The notes beneath the pieces were generated by a model, which did not search any database, was not told the origin of the DNA, and was given only the letters and a program-made list of their open reading frames with translations. Shown in pieces: positions 16,989 to 32,000 of a DNA stretch of 32,000 bases. Both the position numbers and the translations under genes were made by a program. The stretch is from an uncultured Thiomicrospira sp. (GTDB taxonomy: Bacteria; Pseudomonadota; Gammaproteobacteria; CAKMZV01). Position 1 is the stretch's first letter. Every line of letters starts with the position of its first letter. The stretch lies in contig OZ239628.1 of NCBI GenBank assembly GCA_965195345.1, positions 387,940 through 419,939 of the forward strand. Reading direction: 5' to 3'.

Positions 16989-19172
16989 ATGAAAAGTTTT
17001 TTTGTAAAAATCATAGCAAATGTAGTCACTATTTTTGTGATTGCCGTTACGGGGGTACATGCACAAGAGATTGAACGAGCAGGGCAAGTAGATGCCATAA
17101 AGCAGAGTGTTTTTGAGCGGGATTTGGAAAATAATATTAGCAGTGCGCTCAGGTTACAGCTCGGTAGCATTCCTTTTTTGGTTCAAGTGAGTGCTGAATT
17201 GCGCTCGATAAAAACATACGCGATTGATACTGTCTCCATATATCAGCCGAGTTCTGTTGAAGCGCCTTCTCTTGAAAGTAAAAAAACAATTGTGAGACAA
17301 CAGCTGCAAGAAGTTGATGCTGGTAGAACGAATCAAAACATTGATCCTGCTGACGATGGAGGCCAAGGTATTTCAAATGCTTTGCCAGGAGCCCCAATTC
17401 TTTTGACGAATAGTGACGATGGATCTGAGCAAAATCAGCCGAGAAGAAGTCAACCTATAACTGAGGTCATTCAATCAACTGAGCCTATCAGTGAAGCGTC
17501 AGAAAGTCAACCGAGAAGTGTTGGTCGATTTGTGAATACCACCCGTGAAACGTTCATTGAAAGTCATGTGTTAATTGACAGAATTGACGTCAAGCTATGG
17601 CTTCCATCTGATTTGGAACCTAGTAGAATTCGTTTTCTCAAACACTTGGTTTCTGAAAAAGCAAGAATTAATTTAATAAGGGGCGATCAGTTTACAACTA
17701 TTTTAACAAATTTTCCAGAAACTGAAAAAAAGGAAGATACCCTAACAACTAACCAGAATAGCTCAACTGAGTCTATAAATATTGATAATATTGGTCGGAG
17801 AATAGGATTAGATAGAGTAGTAAGTGAGCTGAGTCAAAACAATTGGTTACCTTGGGCGCTTGCTGGGTTACTCTTTTTATGGTTATTGTTTTTGCTTTTC
17901 CGCAAAAAAAGAACCGCGCATCACCAACCGCCGATCGCAACGTACCATCACAGCGATGTTCCATTTAACCCTCCATCATTAACGAACATCAACCCTCCTG
18001 AATCCGCATCTCTTGAAGATAAACAACAAGATCACGAACATAAACAGCGATTGAAAATTCTTAATGAAGACATAGTGAGTAATATCATGCTGCATGAAGG
18101 GTTGTTGCTGAATGCGCTAAATAACCCTAACCTTGCAATAGAAAAAGTACGATTTACGGCTTGGTTGATTAAATTGCTTGGCACAGCCGTGGTTGCAAAG
18201 TATGCATATGATCAGCTTAATGAAAGCGAATTAAAAAACGCGAATGCGTTGCAAGAAGTTATTGAACAAAGCACATTGATAGAACAATGTGAATGGGCAG
18301 CAAAGGTGCATAGAAGCTTACGCGATAGTGAGTCGCTTTCTAATAAAAATATTTCCCAACCTTTTGATTTCTTAAATGAAATGAATGATCAGAAATTGAA
18401 ACGCTTGCTAAATGAAGAGCATGTGCAGGCAAAAGCACTGATACTTTCTCAAATTGATCAACGACGCTCGGCAGCAATCCTTGCTATGTTTTCTGCTGAG
18501 GAACAAGCAAGTATTGCCATAGCAATGGGGAAACTTACGACACTTCCAGTATCTTCATTTCATGACATAGCTAATCAATTAGCTCGTAAGGCTCAAAGCA
18601 TTCCAGAAGTAAATGAGCTTAACATTGATGGAACGGAAGCGCTAGTGCAGATGATAGAGTCCATGGATTTGGCGAATGGAACAGCGTTCCTGAATGAATT
18701 GAGAAAACAAAATCCTGATCAATATTATCGCATTAAGAAATTGTATATGGGCTTTGAGGATATTCCAAAAATTCCGAAGGCTATATTGAAAAACTTTTTG
18801 CGTGAAATTGAACGAGAAGAGTTGGTTACGGCACTGTACGATGAGGAAGATGCTTTTAGAGAACAGTTACTCAGTGCGCTTCCTGATCGAGCAAAGGCAT
18901 TAGTTCAGCAGTTATTGAGTGAAATACAAACACCAACTGCAGCAAAGATTATGCAATCGAAAAAAATGATTAGCACCAAAGCAAGGCAGTTATTGCGAGC
19001 TAAAGTATTTGAATTACCAACAGATGAAGAGACCTTCACAGCGTCTTCAACATCTGAAGCAGGGCTACAAGAAGAGTCTATAGTTCCCTCTATAGAGGTT
19101 GAGTCAAGGCTTTCGGAAGAGTCAAACACAGGGTCAAGAAGCTCCTCAAACCTTAATAACTTAGAAAAATGA
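16989..19172 (+). CDS. Membrane protein with a FliF-like periplasmic region fused to a FliG-like (N/M/C) cytoplasmic region
   Basis: 727-aa ORF. A hydrophobic N-terminus spans aa 5-24 and a second TM spans aa 286-304 (WLPWALAGLLFLWLLFLLF), followed by RKKR. The periplasmic aa 190-242 segment IDRIDVKLWLPSDLEPSRIRFLKHLVSEKARINLIRGDQFTTILTNF matches the FliF/YscJ C-terminal ring-domain pattern (i.rlsVaV...l..i..lv....g....RGD.v.v...F). The cytoplasmic part has FliG hallmarks: LLNEEHVQAKALILSQI (EHPQ-type motif), LYMGFEDI (MFxFEDl), and ILKNFLREIEREELVTALYDEEDAFREQLLSALPDRAKAL (iq.lLrev....La.ALkga.ee.re.il.nms.RAa). Confidence 0.7.
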   Translation: MKSFFVKIIANVVTIFVIAVTGVHAQEIERAGQVDAIKQSVFERDLENNISSALRLQLGSIPFLVQVSAELRSIKTYAIDTVSIYQPSSVEAPSLESKKTIVRQQLQEVDAGRTNQNIDPADDGGQGISNALPGAPILLTNSDDGSEQNQPRRSQPITEVIQSTEPISEASESQPRSVGRFVNTTRETFIESHVLIDRIDVKLWLPSDLEPSRIRFLKHLVSEKARINLIRGDQFTTILTNFPETEKKEDTLTTNQNSSTESINIDNIGRRIGLDRVVSELSQNNWLPWALAGLLFLWLLFLLFRKKRTAHHQPPIATYHHSDVPFNPPSLTNINPPESASLEDKQQDHEHKQRLKILNEDIVSNIMLHEGLLLNALNNPNLAIEKVRFTAWLIKLLGTAVVAKYAYDQLNESELKNANALQEVIEQSTLIEQCEWAAKVHRSLRDSESLSNKNISQPFDFLNEMNDQKLKRLLNEEHVQAKALILSQIDQRRSAAILAMFSAEEQASIAIAMGKLTTLPVSSFHDIANQLARKAQSIPEVNELNIDGTEALVQMIESMDLANGTAFLNELRKQNPDQYYRIKKLYMGFEDIPKIPKAILKNFLREIEREELVTALYDEEDAFREQLLSALPDRAKALVQQLLSEIQTPTAAKIMQSKKMISTKARQLLRAKVFELPTDEETFTASSTSEAGLQEESIVPSIEVESRLSEESNTGSRSSSNLNNLEK

Positions 19173-20734: not shown

Positions 20735-20854
20735 TTTTTATAATATTTTTTGATTTTTGGCACGCATTGAGACTATTTTTAAGCAGGTTCTAAAATGCAA
20801 AGAAAGGGTATGGGATTCATATTTAACCGAATAAATGCTCTTACTTTTTCTAGT

Positions 20855-22210
20855 ATGAGAAAAAAAAATCCAATTCTACTGGTCTGCTCTTTTGTGGTGT
20901 TTCTCTCCTTCCCTATAAAAGCAACGAGCAATTTTCAACCTTCCCAATTGAGAACTTTGTTTAATCCTGCCGCTGAGAATCCATCAGCAGCAGTTATCTA
21001 CAGTTACTTATTCAATGATAGTGATATCGGGTTGCAAGTATATGGAGAAGCGCAAGGACTAGTAGAAAACACCATAGATGAGAATCAACTTCTAATGGAG
21101 TTGAACGGTATTATAAATTCTAATATTGGCGTTAATTCTATTAATCAATTTGAAACACAAATAAATAATTTCCTTAGAACTACTCAACCTATTCTTCGTG
21201 GTAATGCAAACGCAATCCTCGCTTTTCGAAAAGGATCAAATACAAAAAAAACTGCTGTCACTCTTAGTTATGATGATAGTCTCTTGTACTATCAACAATT
21301 GCGATTTATCAATGGCGTTGATGTTGATGTGCCGGCAGTAACAGCCTTAATTGCGGGCAACACGACCATTGATTCTGCAGATTTTTTGAACGCTATTGAT
21401 ACTGATGTGGGCATTAATAATACATTGGCACGTATCAGAACGTTCAGCTTAGGATATAGCCATCGCTACACGATTAATCCAATAATTAAATTCAGCTATG
21501 GTGTGCGTTTTAAAGCACAATCGGCATCTATTTCTTCAAACTTGGTGGACTTTCGAACAGTTATATCCACGACCAATGAGGTAGTTCAGTTAGAAAGTGC
21601 TGATATATTTGGAAATTTTGACACAGCAAACGAGCATATATATGGTAATGTTGATTTAGCTCTAACATTGCATGGAAGACAATATTTTATAAGCATATAC
21701 TCACTGGATACCATACCGCAAAGGTTAGCATTACCAAGTTTTTCCGATACATGCGAGTCTGTAAATGATTGTGCTATATCAGCACTGTATCCAAATGGGA
21801 ATGAGTTTTTTTATATCGACCCTAAAGTGCGTTTTGAATACAGCTATCTGTCACGACGCAAGCAATTTCGCTTTAGCTTTTTGTACGATATACTCCCTTG
21901 GAGAGATGGAAGTACTGCCGAGCGCCAACTGCTAACTATCCATACTGAAATTGCGACGACTAAGCGAAACACTAATAGACCCTATTGGGGACATCCCTCC
22001 CCTTCGATAAGGCTATCTGCTTTTATAGATGATGCTTCTTCTTTCGTGAATGATACTCTTATTCAGACAGGGTTCAGTGCATGGTTTATAGATTTAAACT
22101 TCACATTTGGCTTTAGAAAACCAGGTATATTAGTCTCTAGACCATCTAGAATTGAGAACAGCAGGACACTTCTACGCGGCATTCAGTTGGGAGTTAACGT
22201 TGATTTTTAA
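20855..22210 (+). CDS. Probable outer-membrane beta-barrel protein; last gene of the rotor-stator cluster
   Basis: The ORF is open from 20795. I prefer the ATG at 20855, which gives a classical signal peptide MRKKNPILLVCSFVVFLSFPIKA|TSNF. The protein is strand-rich throughout and ends ...LRGIQLGVNVDF, with alternating hydrophobics and a terminal Phe (a BAM beta-signal-like C-terminus). Confidence 0.6.
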   Translation: MRKKNPILLVCSFVVFLSFPIKATSNFQPSQLRTLFNPAAENPSAAVIYSYLFNDSDIGLQVYGEAQGLVENTIDENQLLMELNGIINSNIGVNSINQFETQINNFLRTTQPILRGNANAILAFRKGSNTKKTAVTLSYDDSLLYYQQLRFINGVDVDVPAVTALIAGNTTIDSADFLNAIDTDVGINNTLARIRTFSLGYSHRYTINPIIKFSYGVRFKAQSASISSNLVDFRTVISTTNEVVQLESADIFGNFDTANEHIYGNVDLALTLHGRQYFISIYSLDTIPQRLALPSFSDTCESVNDCAISALYPNGNEFFYIDPKVRFEYSYLSRRKQFRFSFLYDILPWRDGSTAERQLLTIHTEIATTKRNTNRPYWGHPSPSIRLSAFIDDASSFVNDTLIQTGFSAWFIDLNFTFGFRKPGILVSRPSRIENSRTLLRGIQLGVNVDF

Positions 22211-24884: not shown

Positions 24885-25490
24885 CTATTTAAAACTATCC
24901 AAGATAGACTTCAACTCCTTTGGATTAGGGTTCGTATGTTTCAAATTATTAAAGATACCTTTTAGTTGATCGCAAGCACTTTTAAAATCGGCGTTAATTA
25001 TTAAGTAGTCGTATTTTGTATGGTTTTTAATCTCATTACGCGCTTCTTGTAAACGTCGTGATATGACATCAATCGCATCGGTAGAACGCGCACGTAGGCG
25101 AGTTGCTAAAGTTTGAAAATTAGGAGGGATGATGAAAATACTTTGGGTATCACTTTTCTTTGAGCGAATTTGATCCGCGCCCTGCCAGTCAATTTCAAGT
25201 ACAACATGCTTACCATTATCTAAGTTTTTTTCCACAGTGCTTCGTGCAGTGCCATAAAGATTACCAAACACATAAGCATATTCCAAAAAAGCATCTTGTT
25301 CGATGAGTTCTAAGAATTTTTGTTCATTAACAAAGTAGTAATTTTCGCCATCAGTCTCATTATTGCGAATAGGTCGAGTCGTGTGAGAAATAGACAAAAC
25401 CGTATTGTTCAACTCACTAAGAGCACTTGCAAGAAGGGAGGATTTGCCTGTTCCAGAAGGAGCAGATACTATAAAAAGTGTCCCTCGCAT
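24885..25490 (-). CDS. gmk: Guanylate kinase
   Basis: 201-aa ORF with the P-loop SAPSGTGKSS, plus SHTTRP.R..E..G..Y.F and the overall Gmk pattern. Confidence 0.95.
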   Translation of the reverse strand: MRGTLFIVSAPSGTGKSSLLASALSELNNTVLSISHTTRPIRNNETDGENYYFVNEQKFLELIEQDAFLEYAYVFGNLYGTARSTVEKNLDNGKHVVLEIDWQGADQIRSKKSDTQSIFIIPPNFQTLATRLRARSTDAIDVISRRLQEARNEIKNHTKYDYLIINADFKSACDQLKGIFNNLKHTNPNPKELKSILDSFK

Positions 25491-25504
25491 ATTCTAAAAA
25501 GGAG

Positions 25505-26629
25505 TTATATGGTCATCGGCATGATGACGTGCTGCAAGTGTACATCATCATCTTTTTCTTCAATAAGAACGCTGGCAGTGGGCGTGGATATTTTTATATT
25601 GATGATGGGTTGACTTAATGTGCTTATCGTTTGCTGTAGGTAGCCTTCATTAAAGGCAATTTCAAGATGTTCACCATCATAAGAAGCAGACATGACAACT
25701 TCGGACTTTTCCTGCTCGGCATTTAAGCAAGTTATCGTAGCAGTGTCGTCTTCTTTGGCTATTAAGCGCACCTGCCTCGTAGAATCTTTGTTAATAAGCG
25801 TCGCCTGTTTCAATGTTTTTGAGAAGCTGTCGCAATCAGCACTGAAGGTGTAATCATTATTTTGAGGGATAACACCGGCGTAGGAAGGAAAAGAACCAAC
25901 GATTAATTTGCTGGCAAACGTTAGGTTTTCTGTGCGCTTTAGCTGAAATGAAATGAAATTGTCACTGATTGAAAGAGTCAGGTCTCCTTTTTCATCTTCA
26001 AGCAATCTTTTAATTTCAGTGACTGCTTTGAGCGGAATAATAATACTACAATCGCTATCAATTTCTTTTTCTAAAGAAGATACCGCACTTGCTAAACGAT
26101 GACCATCGGTGGCGACTACTCGGATTTGAGTTCCTTGGGCTTCAAGTAACATGCCTCGCAAAGGCGCTCTGATATCCTTAGTTGAAATGGCAAAAGATAC
26201 TTTATTGATAAGTGTTTTTAGTGTTTTCTTAGAAACAGTTATTGATTGATCAAAGTTGGTAAGGTCTAGCTGCGGAAATCCTTCGGAAGGCAAGGTTGAA
26301 AGATTGTAGCGTGCGTAATCAGTATGAATGACCGCTTGTGTATCAGAAAATTCAATGGCGATGGTTTCTGCTGTGGTGCTTGACACGATGTCGAGAAGTT
26401 TTTGAGCTCCAAGTGTCGTATCAAATTTACCTCCAGCGATCTCTCCTTCAGGCATTGGTAGTTGAGCAACCATTTGCAATTCAGTATCTGTAGTGGTGAG
26501 GACCATTCCAGATTCATCAACTTGCAGTTTTACGTTGCCAAGGATCGGCAAAATTTTCACACGATCAATAACACTTGCTATATTTTGTAGCACTTGATAG
26601 AGTGGCTTTCTCTCAAATAATAGTTTCAT
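25505..26629 (-). CDS. dnaN: DNA polymerase III beta sliding clamp
   Basis: 374-aa ORF immediately downstream of dnaA. The N-terminus is typical (MKLLFERKPLYQVLQNIASVI...PILGNVKL) and the length fits three domains. Confidence 0.95.
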   Translation of the reverse strand: MKLLFERKPLYQVLQNIASVIDRVKILPILGNVKLQVDESGMVLTTTDTELQMVAQLPMPEGEIAGGKFDTTLGAQKLLDIVSSTTAETIAIEFSDTQAVIHTDYARYNLSTLPSEGFPQLDLTNFDQSITVSKKTLKTLINKVSFAISTKDIRAPLRGMLLEAQGTQIRVVATDGHRLASAVSSLEKEIDSDCSIIIPLKAVTEIKRLLEDEKGDLTLSISDNFISFQLKRTENLTFASKLIVGSFPSYAGVIPQNNDYTFSADCDSFSKTLKQATLINKDSTRQVRLIAKEDDTATITCLNAEQEKSEVVMSASYDGEHLEIAFNEGYLQQTISTLSQPIINIKISTPTASVLIEEKDDDVHLQHVIMPMTI

Positions 26630-26637
26630 GGGTTAGT

Positions 26638-27963
26638 CTAGTTGGACAAGGTTATAAAAAGATTGTTAAAGTCGTTCTCAAAATTGGTATTTTCTTTTCG
26701 CAATCGTTCAACATTACGACAAGCATGCAAAACAGTGGTATGGTCTCGAGCGAATGCATCTCCAATTTCTGACAAACTTAGATTGGTGAGTTGTTTTGCC
26801 ATAGCCATAGCCATATGGCGTGCACGAACAACAGGTTGACGGCGGACTTTACCAAGTAAGTCGGTTGAGCGTAAACGGAAGTAGGAGGCAACGGTTTTAA
26901 TGATTTGGTCCACTGATACAGCGCGCGAATGTGAAGCAAAAACATTATCCAATGCTTCATGAGTGCTAAGCAGTGTCATAGGTTTACCACTGAAGTCGTG
27001 GTAGGCTTTGAGTGTCGCAAGTGCGCTCTGAAGTTCGCGAACGTTCGAACGAATTTTTTGGGCGACTAAGAAAGCAATTTCTTCTGGTAGGTCAAGGGAA
27101 ACTTCGCGAGCTTTTGCCTTAAGTATGGCTACACGGAGTTCGAGCTCTGGTGGTTTAAGCTCAATAGCTAATCCAGCTCCAAAGCGCGAGCGCAACCGAT
27201 CACTAAATCCACTCAGATCTTTCGGATAGCGGTCACAAGTAAAGACTACTTGTTTATGACCTTCAAGCATAAGATTGACTATTTGAAAAAGCTCTTCTTG
27301 TGTGCTGGCTTTTTCTGCGAAAAAATGCACATCATCAATCAAAAGAACGTCAAAGCTACGATAAAACCTTTTGAACTGTGGCATTGTCTTCTCGTTTAGA
27401 GAAGCGATGAAGTTAGAAACAAAACGAGGAGCGTGCTGATAGAAAACTTTTGTGTTTGTATGGCGAATCATATGATTGCCAATTGAATAAAGTATGTGCG
27501 TTTTTCCTAGTCCAGAGCGACCATATATAAAGAAAGGGTTGTAAATGCTCGCTTGAGTGTTTTCGGCAATTTGTTTGGCAATAGATGACACCATAGTATT
27601 GGACTCGCCAGTAACAAAATTGCTAAATGAAAATTGTGGTTGCAATCCTGCTTCTTTAATGCGCTCATTGACATCGGCATGATTAGCGCGCGCTTGTAGT
27701 CGAGAAATTGAGTTTTCTTCAATATCTTCTTCGGCTTCTAGGTGTATGTGCAAAGTTTGGGGGCTTGCAGAGTCAATCGTGCTTTTTAGTATTTCCCAAT
27801 GAGCATTGGCATGTAAGCAATCTGCGAAATGTTCGTTTGGAGCTATGATGTGAAGTTTATTTCCATTAAGCTTTGCTCTTAAGGGAGCGACCCACCGCTC
27901 AAAGTCATGTTGCTCTAACGTATTCTCAAGTAGCCTAACACATCTGTTCCAGATGTCACTCAT
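26638..27963 (-). CDS. dnaA: Chromosomal replication initiator DnaA
   Basis: 441-aa ORF with Walker A GRSGLGKTH, Walker B LLIDDVHF, a sensor/box VII region, and a C-terminal DNA-binding domain (VRARHMAMAMAKQLTNLSLSEIGDAFARDHTTVLHA). Confidence 0.97.
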   Translation of the reverse strand: MSDIWNRCVRLLENTLEQHDFERWVAPLRAKLNGNKLHIIAPNEHFADCLHANAHWEILKSTIDSASPQTLHIHLEAEEDIEENSISRLQARANHADVNERIKEAGLQPQFSFSNFVTGESNTMVSSIAKQIAENTQASIYNPFFIYGRSGLGKTHILYSIGNHMIRHTNTKVFYQHAPRFVSNFIASLNEKTMPQFKRFYRSFDVLLIDDVHFFAEKASTQEELFQIVNLMLEGHKQVVFTCDRYPKDLSGFSDRLRSRFGAGLAIELKPPELELRVAILKAKAREVSLDLPEEIAFLVAQKIRSNVRELQSALATLKAYHDFSGKPMTLLSTHEALDNVFASHSRAVSVDQIIKTVASYFRLRSTDLLGKVRRQPVVRARHMAMAMAKQLTNLSLSEIGDAFARDHTTVLHACRNVERLRKENTNFENDFNNLFITLSN

Positions 27964-30850: not shown

Positions 30851-30980
30851 CAACTAGCTCAAAAGGGAGAGGGACTTAAATATTAAAGTGTGCCTTTTCG
30901 GTTTTTTTGATAAAAAACACCGTAAGACATGCGGAAATTGGAAATCAATAATCAGCTGAAACGATTAAGTTGTTTCGTGT

Positions 30981-31106
30981 TCAACGCTGACGCGCCTTAA
31001 ATCGAGGGTCAGACTTACAAATCACAAAAATCTTGCCACGGCGGCGTACAACTTGACAATCTTTGTGGCGTTTCTTTGCAGATTTCAATGAGGATACAAT
31101 TTTCAT
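30981..31106 (-). CDS. rpmJ: 50S ribosomal protein L36, type B (YkgO-like, lacking the full Cys3His zinc motif)
   Basis: 41-aa ORF below the track cutoff: [41 protein letters not shown]. It is very similar to E. coli YkgO as I recall it ([41 protein letters not shown]...). Confidence 0.85.
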
Positions 31107-31203
31107 AATGCAACTAATGTGTTGGTAAAATTAGAACGGCGTGCATTATACGGTGCGAACACGATGAAAATTTGTTTTTTTTAGCTTAGATTACAGATAA
31201 GAG

Positions 31204-31232
31204 TTGAAACTTGGTACATTCTGTCGTAATAT
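31204..31232 (+). promoter_or_regulatory. Putative sigma70 promoter for phoH
   Basis: TTGAAA (31204-31209), a 17-nt spacer, then TAATAT (31227-31232), about 110 nt upstream of the phoH ATG. This is a pattern match only. Confidence 0.3.
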
Positions 31233-31340
31233 TTGCACATTGATATGCTAATTAGTTCACTTTGAAAATTTTTTCCCATTCTGTCTTGGCAGACTTTCTG
31301 TTCATTCGAATAGCTTTGCTATACATTTTACATACTGCGT

Positions 31341-32000
31341 ATGCTCGATCATAAAATCCAACTTCTCCCCGAGAATAATGATTATTTGCGGTGTTTAGGG
31401 GGTGTTGAGAATAATCGAATTTCTTTTTTGGAAGTGCATTATGACGTTCGTATTTCTCAAAGAGGCTTTAAAATGCGCATACAAGGGAATGATATTGACT
31501 GCATACGTGCTGGAAAAGTTATATTAGGGTTGTATGAAGAAGCAAAAAAGGGAGAGATTGATGATAAGAGCATGTTCAGTATGTTAAATCAATTTGATAA
31601 AAAAGGAAATCAAATTTTGCCAATTGTATATGCAACGTTTCAAGCCGGAGATAAGACTATTAAGGCGCGAAATACTTCTCAACAGCGCTTTATTGAGCTA
31701 ATGAACGAAAAAGATGTTGTATTTGGCATCGGACCTGCGGGAACAGGTAAGACCTATTTGGCGGTGGCTAAAGCAGTGGAGTCTTTAGAGCGTCGAGACA
31801 TAAAGCGCATTGTGTTGACACGCCCTGCCGTTGAAGCTGGGGAGAAATTGGGTTTTTTGCCTGGAGATTTAAGTCAAAAAATTGACCCGTACCTGCGCCC
31901 CTTATATGATGCATTGTTTGAAATGTTGGGTTCGAGGAAAGTTGAAAAATTGATCGCTAAAAATATAATTGAAATAGCACCATTGGCTTTTATGCGTGGT
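31341..32000 (+). CDS. phoH: PhoH-family ATPase (YbeZ-like), 5' part, runs off the right edge
   Basis: The frame is open from the ATG at 31341 to the window end (220 codons) and is not in the track because there is no stop. It has Walker A GPAGTGKTYLAVA and the PhoH signature RIVLTRPAVEAGEKLGFLPGDLSQKIDPYLRPLYDAL. Confidence 0.92.
   Translation, partial: MLDHKIQLLPENNDYLRCLGGVENNRISFLEVHYDVRISQRGFKMRIQGNDIDCIRAGKVILGLYEEAKKGEIDDKSMFSMLNQFDKKGNQILPIVYATFQAGDKTIKARNTSQQRFIELMNEKDVVFGIGPAGTGKTYLAVAKAVESLERRDIKRIVLTRPAVEAGEKLGFLPGDLSQKIDPYLRPLYDALFEMLGSRKVEKLIAKNIIEIAPLAFMRG

Follow-up and report, generated by a model that had tools for sequence, protein, structure and literature searches.

A FliF RBM3-FliG fusion encoded with MotA/MotB-like stator genes: a candidate minimal flagellar-type rotor

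The window analyzed here is a stretch of 32,000 nucleotides from an uncultured Thiomicrospira sp. (GenBank assembly GCA_965195345.1, contig OZ239628.1, positions 387,940 to 419,939 of the forward strand). It carries a gene for a protein of 727 amino acids (aa) in which a FliF-like periplasmic domain, a transmembrane (TM) helix and a FliG-like cytoplasmic region follow one another in a single chain. Such a natural FliF-FliG fusion had been proposed by an earlier reading of the letters and their open reading frames (ORFs), which we call the sequence-only reading. The fusion gene is preceded by genes for a putative outer-membrane protein (X1) and a tetratricopeptide repeat (TPR) lipoprotein and followed by genes for a MotA/PomA-like protein, a MotB-like protein and a second putative outer-membrane protein (X2), as listed in Table 1. 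Because of these dedicated MotA/MotB, TPR and putative outer-membrane-protein neighbors, the locus reads as a system and not as one odd protein.

An ORF of the same length, with 98% identity and in the same gene order, is present in an independent metagenome assembly (ERZ25059891, locus L001 of our census). Compared codon by codon, the two ORFs show 20 synonymous and 12 non-synonymous differences, spread along the gene. A 727-aa twin with mostly synonymous changes along its length indicates that the reading frame is real and under selection, and no frameshift artefact. The single polypeptide proposed earlier is thereby confirmed, and the artificial joining of two genes, which the sequence-only reading had raised as a danger, is ruled out by this twin and by the many relatives of equal architecture described below. 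The topology proposed there holds as well: hydropathy finds two hydrophobic segments, the second followed by RKKR. The first begins at residue 5, with the residues VHA and QE after it, and a comparable segment occurs in 105 of 110 family N-termini, usually after a short N-terminal stretch, as counted with a crude script that is unreliable in detail. It is a putative signal peptide (with a possible site between VHA and QE) or a first TM helix, and looks like a signal peptide. The motifs lie where they had been placed, RGD at aa 231-233 (nt 17679-17687), EHVQ at aa 477-480 (nt 18417-18428) and MGFEDI at aa 587-592, and the FliF string quoted for comparison (...RLSVAVVVN...REAMGFSEKRGDSLNVVNSPF) is indeed found in E. 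coli FliF.

The periplasmic part of the fusion is related to FliF. In the PDB, a family profile of the N-terminal 315 residues (52 sequences) matched FliF over residues 252-493 in Vibrio (E 3e-7) and over residues 225-479 in Salmonella (E 1.6e-6), exactly the stretch that holds ring-building motif 3 (RBM3), the beta-collar and the second TM helix (TM2). SpoIIIAG came next, at E 2e-3. The first half of the RBM3-like domain (aa 27-86) aligns with FliF from about residue 225 or 252 on, the LPG motif of the family with the IPGAL collar-loop motif of Vibrio FliF, and RGD with the KRGD of FliF. RGD is invariant in the fusion family; L132, P133 and G134 are invariant or nearly so in alignments A1 and A4 and, like G232 and D233, nearly invariant in the 55-member family alignment. 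Pfam model YscJ_FliF_C (PF08345) matched 14 of 55 family members (best E 7e-8), and the periplasmic part of the window fusion alone stayed under its threshold in the Pfam scan.

Structural models point in the same direction. AlphaFold run on the whole fusion from its single sequence was uninformative, with a predicted local distance difference test score (pLDDT) of 36. With the family alignment, pLDDT reached 94-98 for aa 31-85 and aa 180-245. A strand, a helix and a long strand come first, and after about 90 residues of disorder a second long strand, a helix and a strand follow. As modeled, the domain is an RBM with its two central strands extended as in the FliF collar. A Foldseek search of the PDB with this model returned FliF MS-ring chains as the 18 best matches (E 1e-7 to 8e-6, probability 1.0; target-normalized TM-score about 0.5), followed by SpoIIIAG at E 0.05 and nothing else under E 0.3. 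The modeled region holds one RBM only, and PF01514 (YscJ_FliF), the model for RBM1 and RBM2, matched neither the window fusion nor any of the 55 family members at E<=0.01. Judged by sequence and model, aa 27-240 are homologous to the RBM3/beta-collar region of FliF only, with RBM1 and RBM2 absent; the FliF share of the protein is about half of a FliF. The sequence-only reading had expected a FliF/SctJ-type ring-building fold (alpha-beta-beta-alpha-beta) in a shortened MS-ring domain, and both expectations agree with these results.

The cytoplasmic part appears to correspond to a complete FliG. Pfam FliG_M (PF14841) and FliG_C (PF01706) scored 46.0 bits (cut-off 25) and 61.6 bits (cut-off 23.3), both matched all 55 family members scanned, and the closest solved structures by sequence in the PDB were all FliG chains, at E 5e-13 and weaker. 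A family profile of about 100 members aligned aa 384-677 with E. coli FliG 4-324 in hhalign (probability 100%, E 1e-56). For the N domain, aa 335-455 aligned with canonical FliG 1-105 at a probability of 95.6% (E 1e-8), the aligned part being FliG residues 4-50 only; the string EKVRFTAWLIKLLG..., which had been proposed as N-domain, thereby falls on the first FliG_N helices (aa 384-431). The Pfam FliG_N match was sub-threshold (21.7 bits, cut-off 25) and placed on the M domain. MgtE or a generic ARM protein was rejected as an identity, since MgtE_N reached 20 bits, under its cut-off, while FliG_M and FliG_C exceeded theirs. The earlier assignment of a full FliG-like region is borne out by these Pfam scores and by the alignment to FliG 4-324.

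Between membrane and FliG part, the family consensus 'lrq.iv...ig.P......l..Wi' aligns weakly to E. coli FliF 521-549, the C-terminal FliG-binding helix (hhalign E 2e-4, probability 45%, single-sequence target). The consensus P and W are replaced in the window protein (E370 and P380). If this match is real, the protein would be a head-to-tail join of a FliF lacking RBM1-2 and a whole FliG. In a neighbor-joining tree, which is rough and indicative only, the FliG-like part was separated from the sampled canonical FliGs. P0065, P0148 and P0150, with about 300-346 aa and first taken as canonical FliG, start at the FliF-tail-like helix (e.g., ...NPSLASEIFKRWIDADQED...) and fall inside the fusion clade of this tree. 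Either their gene calls are truncated, or the cytoplasmic half also exists in an unfused form.

By its sequence, the window protein is no ordinary FliG ortholog, as the NCBIfam equivalog model TIGR00207 gave 75.1 bits against a cut-off of 226.7. At the EHPQ/R160 surface that binds FliM, the window protein reads EHVQ and has A512 in place of R160; among 118 family members only the E is kept, with variation at H, P, Q and R160. This pattern indicates that the FliM-binding surface is lost in the fusion family. On the torque helix, the R281 equivalent is R634, an R or K in 102 of the 118 members. The equivalents of E. coli D288/D289 are Q641/L642 in the window protein, and in the family at large they are acidic only in part. 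The Gly of the M-C linker and the MFxFEDL-type motif are kept with respect to canonical FliG. The acidic, Ser-rich tail (aa 678-727) is not kept across the family (alignment A2).

Table 1. Positions of the module genes and of the segments of the fusion protein in the window
Feature	Position	Strand	Basis or remark
X1, secreted protein, 409 aa, putative outer-membrane protein	15165..16394	+	ORF call
TPR lipoprotein, 189 aa, lipobox LSGC	16391..16960	+	Pfam TPR_2 E 2.5e-6, LPAM_1 E 0.005
FliF(RBM3/collar)-TM-FliG fusion protein	16989..19172	+	727 aa, ATG start
N-terminal hydrophobic segment, aa 5-24	17001..17060	+	Hydropathy
RBM3-like domain, first half, aa 27-86 (strand, helix, long strand)	17067..17246	+	AlphaFold pLDDT 97-98
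Low-complexity loop, predicted disordered, aa 87-179, tip of long hairpin	17247..17525	+	pLDDT ~50
LPG motif in hairpin loop, aa 132-134	17382..17390	+	Alignments A1, A4
RBM3-like domain, second half, aa 180-240 (long strand, helix, strand), with RGD	17526..17708	+	pLDDT 94-98
TM helix, aa 286-304, then RKKR	17844..17900	+	Hydropathy; aligns to FliF TM2
Helix resembling FliF C-terminal FliG-binding helix, aa 355-383	18051..18137	+	hhalign, weak
FliG_N-like domain start, aa 384-431	18138..18281	+	hhalign probability 95.6%, E 1e-8
FliG middle domain, aa 468-539, EHVQ replacing EHPQ	18390..18605	+	Pfam FliG_M E 6e-12
FliG C-terminal torque domain, aa 570-671, MGFEDI, R634	18696..19001	+	Pfam FliG_C E 1e-16
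Acidic, Ser-rich C-terminal tail, aa 678-727	19020..19169	+	Alignment A2
MotA/PomA-like stator A subunit, 259 aa	19169..19948	+	Pfam MotA_ExbB E 2e-17
MotB-like stator B subunit, 239 aa	20015..20734	+	Pfam MotB_plug E 2e-15, OmpA E 3e-19
X2, secreted protein, 471 aa, ends ...GVNVDF, putative outer-membrane barrel	20795..22210	+	Lineage-specific

The sequence-only reading had described the fusion as lacking partner switch genes. FliM and FliN are indeed absent from the window, and the MotA/PomA-like and MotB-like genes directly downstream had been overlooked. The MotA start overlaps the fusion stop codon (ATGA), and the TPR gene begins with a GTG that shares bases with the X1 stop (GTGA); by these overlaps, the fusion may be translationally coupled with MotA, and X1 with the TPR protein. 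The stator A subunit scored 115 bits with NCBIfam PomA (cut-off 341) and 16-18 bits with TolQ/ExbB, and a Tol/Exb-type motor was rejected as its identity on these scores. In eight homologs, the equivalents of the MotA channel prolines P173 and P222 are invariant, as is the channel Asp of MotB. The MotB-like protein has the plug, the channel Asp (in TYSD) and an OmpA-type peptidoglycan-binding domain, and scored 133-166 bits with NCBIfam MotD/MotB models. With these features in place and all equivalog cut-offs missed, the sequences mark the downstream pair as divergent members of the MotAB/PomAB group. The anti-phage system Zorya (ZorAB), in which ZorA has a long cytoplasmic tail and is accompanied by ZorC/ZorD or further effector genes, was rejected as an identity: the stator A subunit has 259 aa, ZorA gave 16.5 bits and no other PADLOC match occurs in the cluster, the match of MotB to ZorB models merely reflecting shared MotB homology.

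Neither X1 nor X2 had a match in Pfam, NCBIfam, PADLOC or PDB sequences. X1 combines an N-terminal periplasmic domain with a beta-rich C-terminal half, and most of its homologs end in ...GYRF or ...GIRF; this outer-membrane-barrel-like C-terminus suggests a barrel. For X2, a barrel is likewise a putative assignment. In the census described below, an X2 homolog was found only in locus L002 and the near-identical L001, so X2 is limited to the lineage of the window. Promoter and terminator scans of the window gave matches no commoner than in shuffled sequence, and Rfam and tRNA scans of the window found nothing.

The fusion is not confined to this locus. An exhaustive search of 1.84 billion cluster representatives, which uncovered the family, gave 2227 matches. 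Most of the best 150 are 550-780 aa long and have a hydrophobic N-terminus, LPG, RGD, a TM helix and FliG; more than 100 representatives of clusters at 50% identity share the architecture of the window protein. LPG, RGD and PFxFL, and the Asp of MotB in its eight homologs, are invariant or nearly so. A word-indexed homolog search returned only the 98% twin with the single protein and almost nothing with the 55-sequence profile, and a scan of genome contigs gave nothing with the window protein alone and a single Gammaproteobacteria metagenome-assembled genome with profile A3. Existing labels of members are restricted to 'hypothetical', 'FliG' or 'FliG C-terminal domain-containing protein'. Taxonomy was taken from source names and DnaA neighbors. 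Named members come from Saccharospirillaceae/Pseudomonadales and other Gammaproteobacteria and from Deltaproteobacteria metagenome-assembled genomes, and the cultured hosts are Vibrio agarivorans and Vibrio sp. SCSIO 43136.

The neighbors of the fusion travel with it. In a census with one hidden Markov model per component, covering 29 non-duplicate loci of which 19 came from a metagenome scan, MotA/MotB were adjacent to the fusion in 24/28 assessable loci, the TPR gene in 25/26 and X1 in 22/25. About 24 of the 28 related loci that could be assessed have the five-gene module X1-TPR-fusion-MotA-MotB, which occurs in unrelated chromosomal neighborhoods. A 43%-identical relative has the same six genes as the window in a wholly different chromosomal neighborhood, and remoter relatives retain the five genes of the module, in some cases in permuted order. 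These data also bear on the view that the locus is a decaying relic of a lost flagellum, or an assembly or frameshift artefact. The host genome is apparently small (1.9 Mb contig), and reduced genomes often retain remnants of lost systems. However, the ORF has equal length in an independent assembly, with its excess of synonymous differences, the same architecture and invariant motifs are kept in the more than 100 diverged representatives, and the genes of the module have moved together from one genomic context to another. A relic or artefact is therefore hardly credible, and the conservation data effectively refute it.

Two census loci, L007 (5285-6886) and L034 (2585-3949), encode beside the fusion an extra protein that matches the RBM3-like N-terminal profile but ends without FliG. 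The L007 protein is a lipoprotein of 532 aa whose C-terminal part carries TPRs. Such proteins may form a second ring.

The relation of the family to flagella was examined at the level of gene neighborhoods. None of FliPQR, FlhAB, rod, hook or FliM/FliN is encoded in the 32-kb window, and the related loci examined with Pfam labels have no export gate, rod, hook or FliM/FliN genes, except that of V. agarivorans (L013:1-13127, GCA_965139855.1). There, the module adjoins the polar flagellar genes flgT, flgO, flgN, flgM, flgA, cheV, cheR and flgB-E. The Vibrio polar flagellum needs a normal FliF and FliG. Since V. agarivorans carries the fusion besides the normal FliF and FliG that its flagellum requires, and since the window and most related loci lack flagellar genes, the family appears to be independent of flagella.

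The V. agarivorans locus is also an argument for an accessory or alternative rotor, i.e., a second rotor-stator set used under particular conditions by a true flagellum encoded elsewhere. Apart from the flgT-to-flgBCDE and cheV/cheR neighborhood, several sources auto-annotate members as FliG, and the flagellar-gene scan was limited to the 32-kb window of the host genome. On the other hand, RBM1 and RBM2, which surround the export gate in FliF, are absent in all 55 members scanned, the EHPQ/R160 surface for FliM is not conserved, the FliG equivalog cut-off is failed (75 vs 227 bits), and elsewhere the module sits among unrelated housekeeping genes. We consider an accessory flagellar rotor quite improbable.

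The domain homologies, the conserved catalytic residues of the stator, the torque-helix Arg, the loss of the FliM surface, the absence of RBM1/2 and the five-gene module, as read from sequence comparison, together point to another role: the fusion is probably a single-chain, minimal flagellar-type rotor subunit in an autonomous, switchless rotor-stator machine. Its chain would run from a signal-peptide-like N-terminus through a periplasmic RBM3/collar domain, one TM helix and a linker resembling the FliG-binding tail of FliF into a complete FliG N/M/C. By analogy with FliF, the RBM3 domains would oligomerize into an inner-membrane ring, which would set one FliG per subunit beneath the membrane. 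Co-translated MotA and MotB would form peptidoglycan-anchored, ion-conducting stator units that push the FliG C-domain, so that the ring would turn on ion flow. The load would likely be coupled through the LPG loop atop the collar, the TPR lipoprotein and X1, the putative outer-membrane protein. A further possible role of the TPR lipoprotein is that of a stator scaffold, which TPR/Sel1 proteins such as MotX and PflA/PflB have in flagella. Such a machine would be switchless because it has no FliM/FliN binding site, and it would build no filament because export gate, rod and hook are lacking. That the module forms a ring and rotates, with which partners it is coupled and what it does for the cell, we infer.

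A non-rotating explanation is that MotA and MotB act on the FliG ring as in a force-transducing envelope system, passing energy via the collar loop, the TPR protein and X1 to the outer membrane. Such a system would work like TolQR-TolA-Pal or ExbBD-TonB, and might serve to tether the envelope, export polysaccharide or move surface proteins. The make-up of the module, with an inner-membrane motor, a TPR lipoprotein, an outer-membrane protein and a peptidoglycan-binding domain, indeed resembles Tol-Pal/CpoB. One relative adjoins Wza/Wzc/Wzy-type export genes and has a Sel1/SPOR protein before its MotA, and a PilZ protein adjoins another. These polysaccharide, PilZ and SPOR neighbors are, however, each single and unconserved, the stator scores as flagellar PomA/MotB-type (115 bits against 16-18 for TolQ/ExbB), and its partner is a ring-building FliF domain with a full FliG. 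To our knowledge, both of these parts are known from a rotating structure only. We therefore regard a force transducer as unlikely. The relative with the export genes is the permuted locus L005 (10614-17415, Gammaproteobacteria metagenome-assembled genome GCA_029884425.1): its order is MotA-MotB-X1-TPR-fusion, the Sel1/SPOR protein lies ahead of MotA, and a BBP2_2 barrel gene and the polysaccharide export genes follow the module, a single case.

Several observations weigh against an autonomous rotor. A single subfamily supplies many of the census loci, whose counts therefore look more independent than they are, and MotA/MotB are not adjacent to the fusion in L010, L014, L033 and L034. The absence of flagellar genes covers 32 kb of this genome only, and the flagellar adjacency in V. 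agarivorans could reflect chance or a flagellum-linked origin or role. In the window protein, Q641/L642 stand where the torque helix has its two acidic residues, and the equivalents of the MotA cytoplasmic residues R90/E98 are only partly conserved in the eight homologs, so that the contact of rotor and stator departs from the canonical interface. Ring formation and rotation are extrapolated from FliF and FliG. The larger claim of a widespread free-standing rotary nanomachine, which would consist of nothing but the torque-generating core of a flagellum and in which an RBM3 ring with FliG and MotAB turns a periplasmic/outer-membrane load of TPR lipoprotein and X1, is put forward as a tentative idea that may well not hold.

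The host of the window appears to be a deep uncultured gammaproteobacterial lineage with small genomes. The nearest relatives of its DnaA (65% and 56% identity) are encoded on contigs that also carry fusion homologs; because the other DnaA relatives, which are gammaproteobacterial, reach at most 46% identity, the lineage is taken to be deep. The dnaA gene itself (26638-27963, minus strand) and dnaN are followed by guanylate kinase and trhP genes and not by the usual recF and gyrB (24885-27963, minus strand), and in locus L012 a guanylate kinase gene likewise lies just downstream of the module. The cumulative GC skew has its minimum at about 8 kb, in the divergent intergenic region between pntA and fdhD (8375-8771) and about 18 kb from dnaA; past it the skew rises steeply, to 0.25-0.27 over 9-12 kb.

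Directly upstream of the module, the window has a complete NAD-dependent formate dehydrogenase cluster (8771-15019, plus strand) of fdhD, DUF7009, a 2Fe-2S subunit, a 51-kDa-type subunit, the molybdopterin alpha subunit and fdsD. The module of the 43%-identical relative lies in entirely different surroundings. A 652-aa ORF (725-2683, minus strand) has no Pfam or NCBIfam match. At the window end (30854-32000), roughly 460 bp upstream of tig hold no ORF, tRNA or Rfam match, and past this gap an open frame of at least 229 codons on the plus strand runs off the window.

If the proposed machine rotates, it would be the simplest flagellar-type motor known, with a FliF:FliG ratio of 1:1 fixed by covalent linkage, and a new kind of envelope machine. 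It would be tractable for the study of torque generation without a switch complex, and the cultured Vibrio members make genetics and cryo-tomography feasible. Rotation would further mean that a rotor-stator core can exist and persist apart from type III secretion, which bears on the origin of the flagellum. Should the FliG, RBM3 and MotAB lineages branch outside the flagellar clades, the module could be the long-hypothesized rotor-stator module independent of type III secretion.

Compared with known systems, the window protein shares with FliF a periplasmic domain homologous in sequence (E 3e-7) and fold (Foldseek E 1e-7), aligned RGD and (L/I)PG motifs, and a TM helix, after which comes a helix with a weak match to the FliG-binding tail. 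In contrast to FliF, it lacks RBM1 and RBM2 and probably the cytoplasmic N-terminus, its first segment is signal-peptide-like, a variable disordered linker takes the place of the collar insertion, and the chain runs on into FliG. From FliG, all three of the N, M and C domains can be aligned, with the M-C linker Gly, the MFxFEDL-type motif and the R281 equivalent kept; the window protein differs in its covalent membrane tether, the loss of EHPQ/R160 and non-acidic D288/D289 equivalents. The stator pair shares with PomAB/MotAB the MotA/ExbB domain, the channel prolines, the MotB plug, the channel Asp and the OmpA-like peptidoglycan-binding domain. Unlike these, it stays under the equivalog cut-offs, keeps the cytoplasmic charges only in part, and is encoded with a rotor fusion and not in a flagellar/chemotaxis operon.

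Fusions of FliF and FliG have precedents. In Salmonella and Vibrio, full-length FliF has been joined to FliG by engineering, and these fusions function and assemble into rings (PMC11481574; PMC10941966; e.g., PDB 8z4d/8z4g). They have the same end-to-end order, and the Vibrio fusion chain was the best PDB match to our N-terminal profile, but they are laboratory constructs with a full-length FliF (RBM1-3) inside a complete flagellar system. The natural fusion of the Chlamydiaceae has about 330 aa and consists of RBM2, an RBM-like element and the FliG M region only, with no SpoIIIAG-like RBM3, and is proposed to work with the injectisome (Bergeron, 2016; PMC4768692). Both are natural single chains in which a signal sequence (putative in the window protein) precedes a reduced FliF-like periplasmic region, a TM segment and a FliG-like part, in a context without a full flagellum, whereas the window protein has 727 aa, RBM3/collar, FliG N/M/C and its own MotA/MotB. 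The sequence-only reading had spoken of a new rotor architecture. As a natural FliF-FliG fusion, it is preceded by the Chlamydiaceae protein (PMC4768692); as an RBM3-FliG fusion with its own stator, it is unmatched in the literature searched. In that full-text literature, with subscription journals mostly outside it, no RBM3-FliG fusion with its own MotAB, TPR and outer-membrane genes is described. All parts are known from flagella, and what is new is their configuration as a minimal, apparently non-flagellar rotor-stator core.

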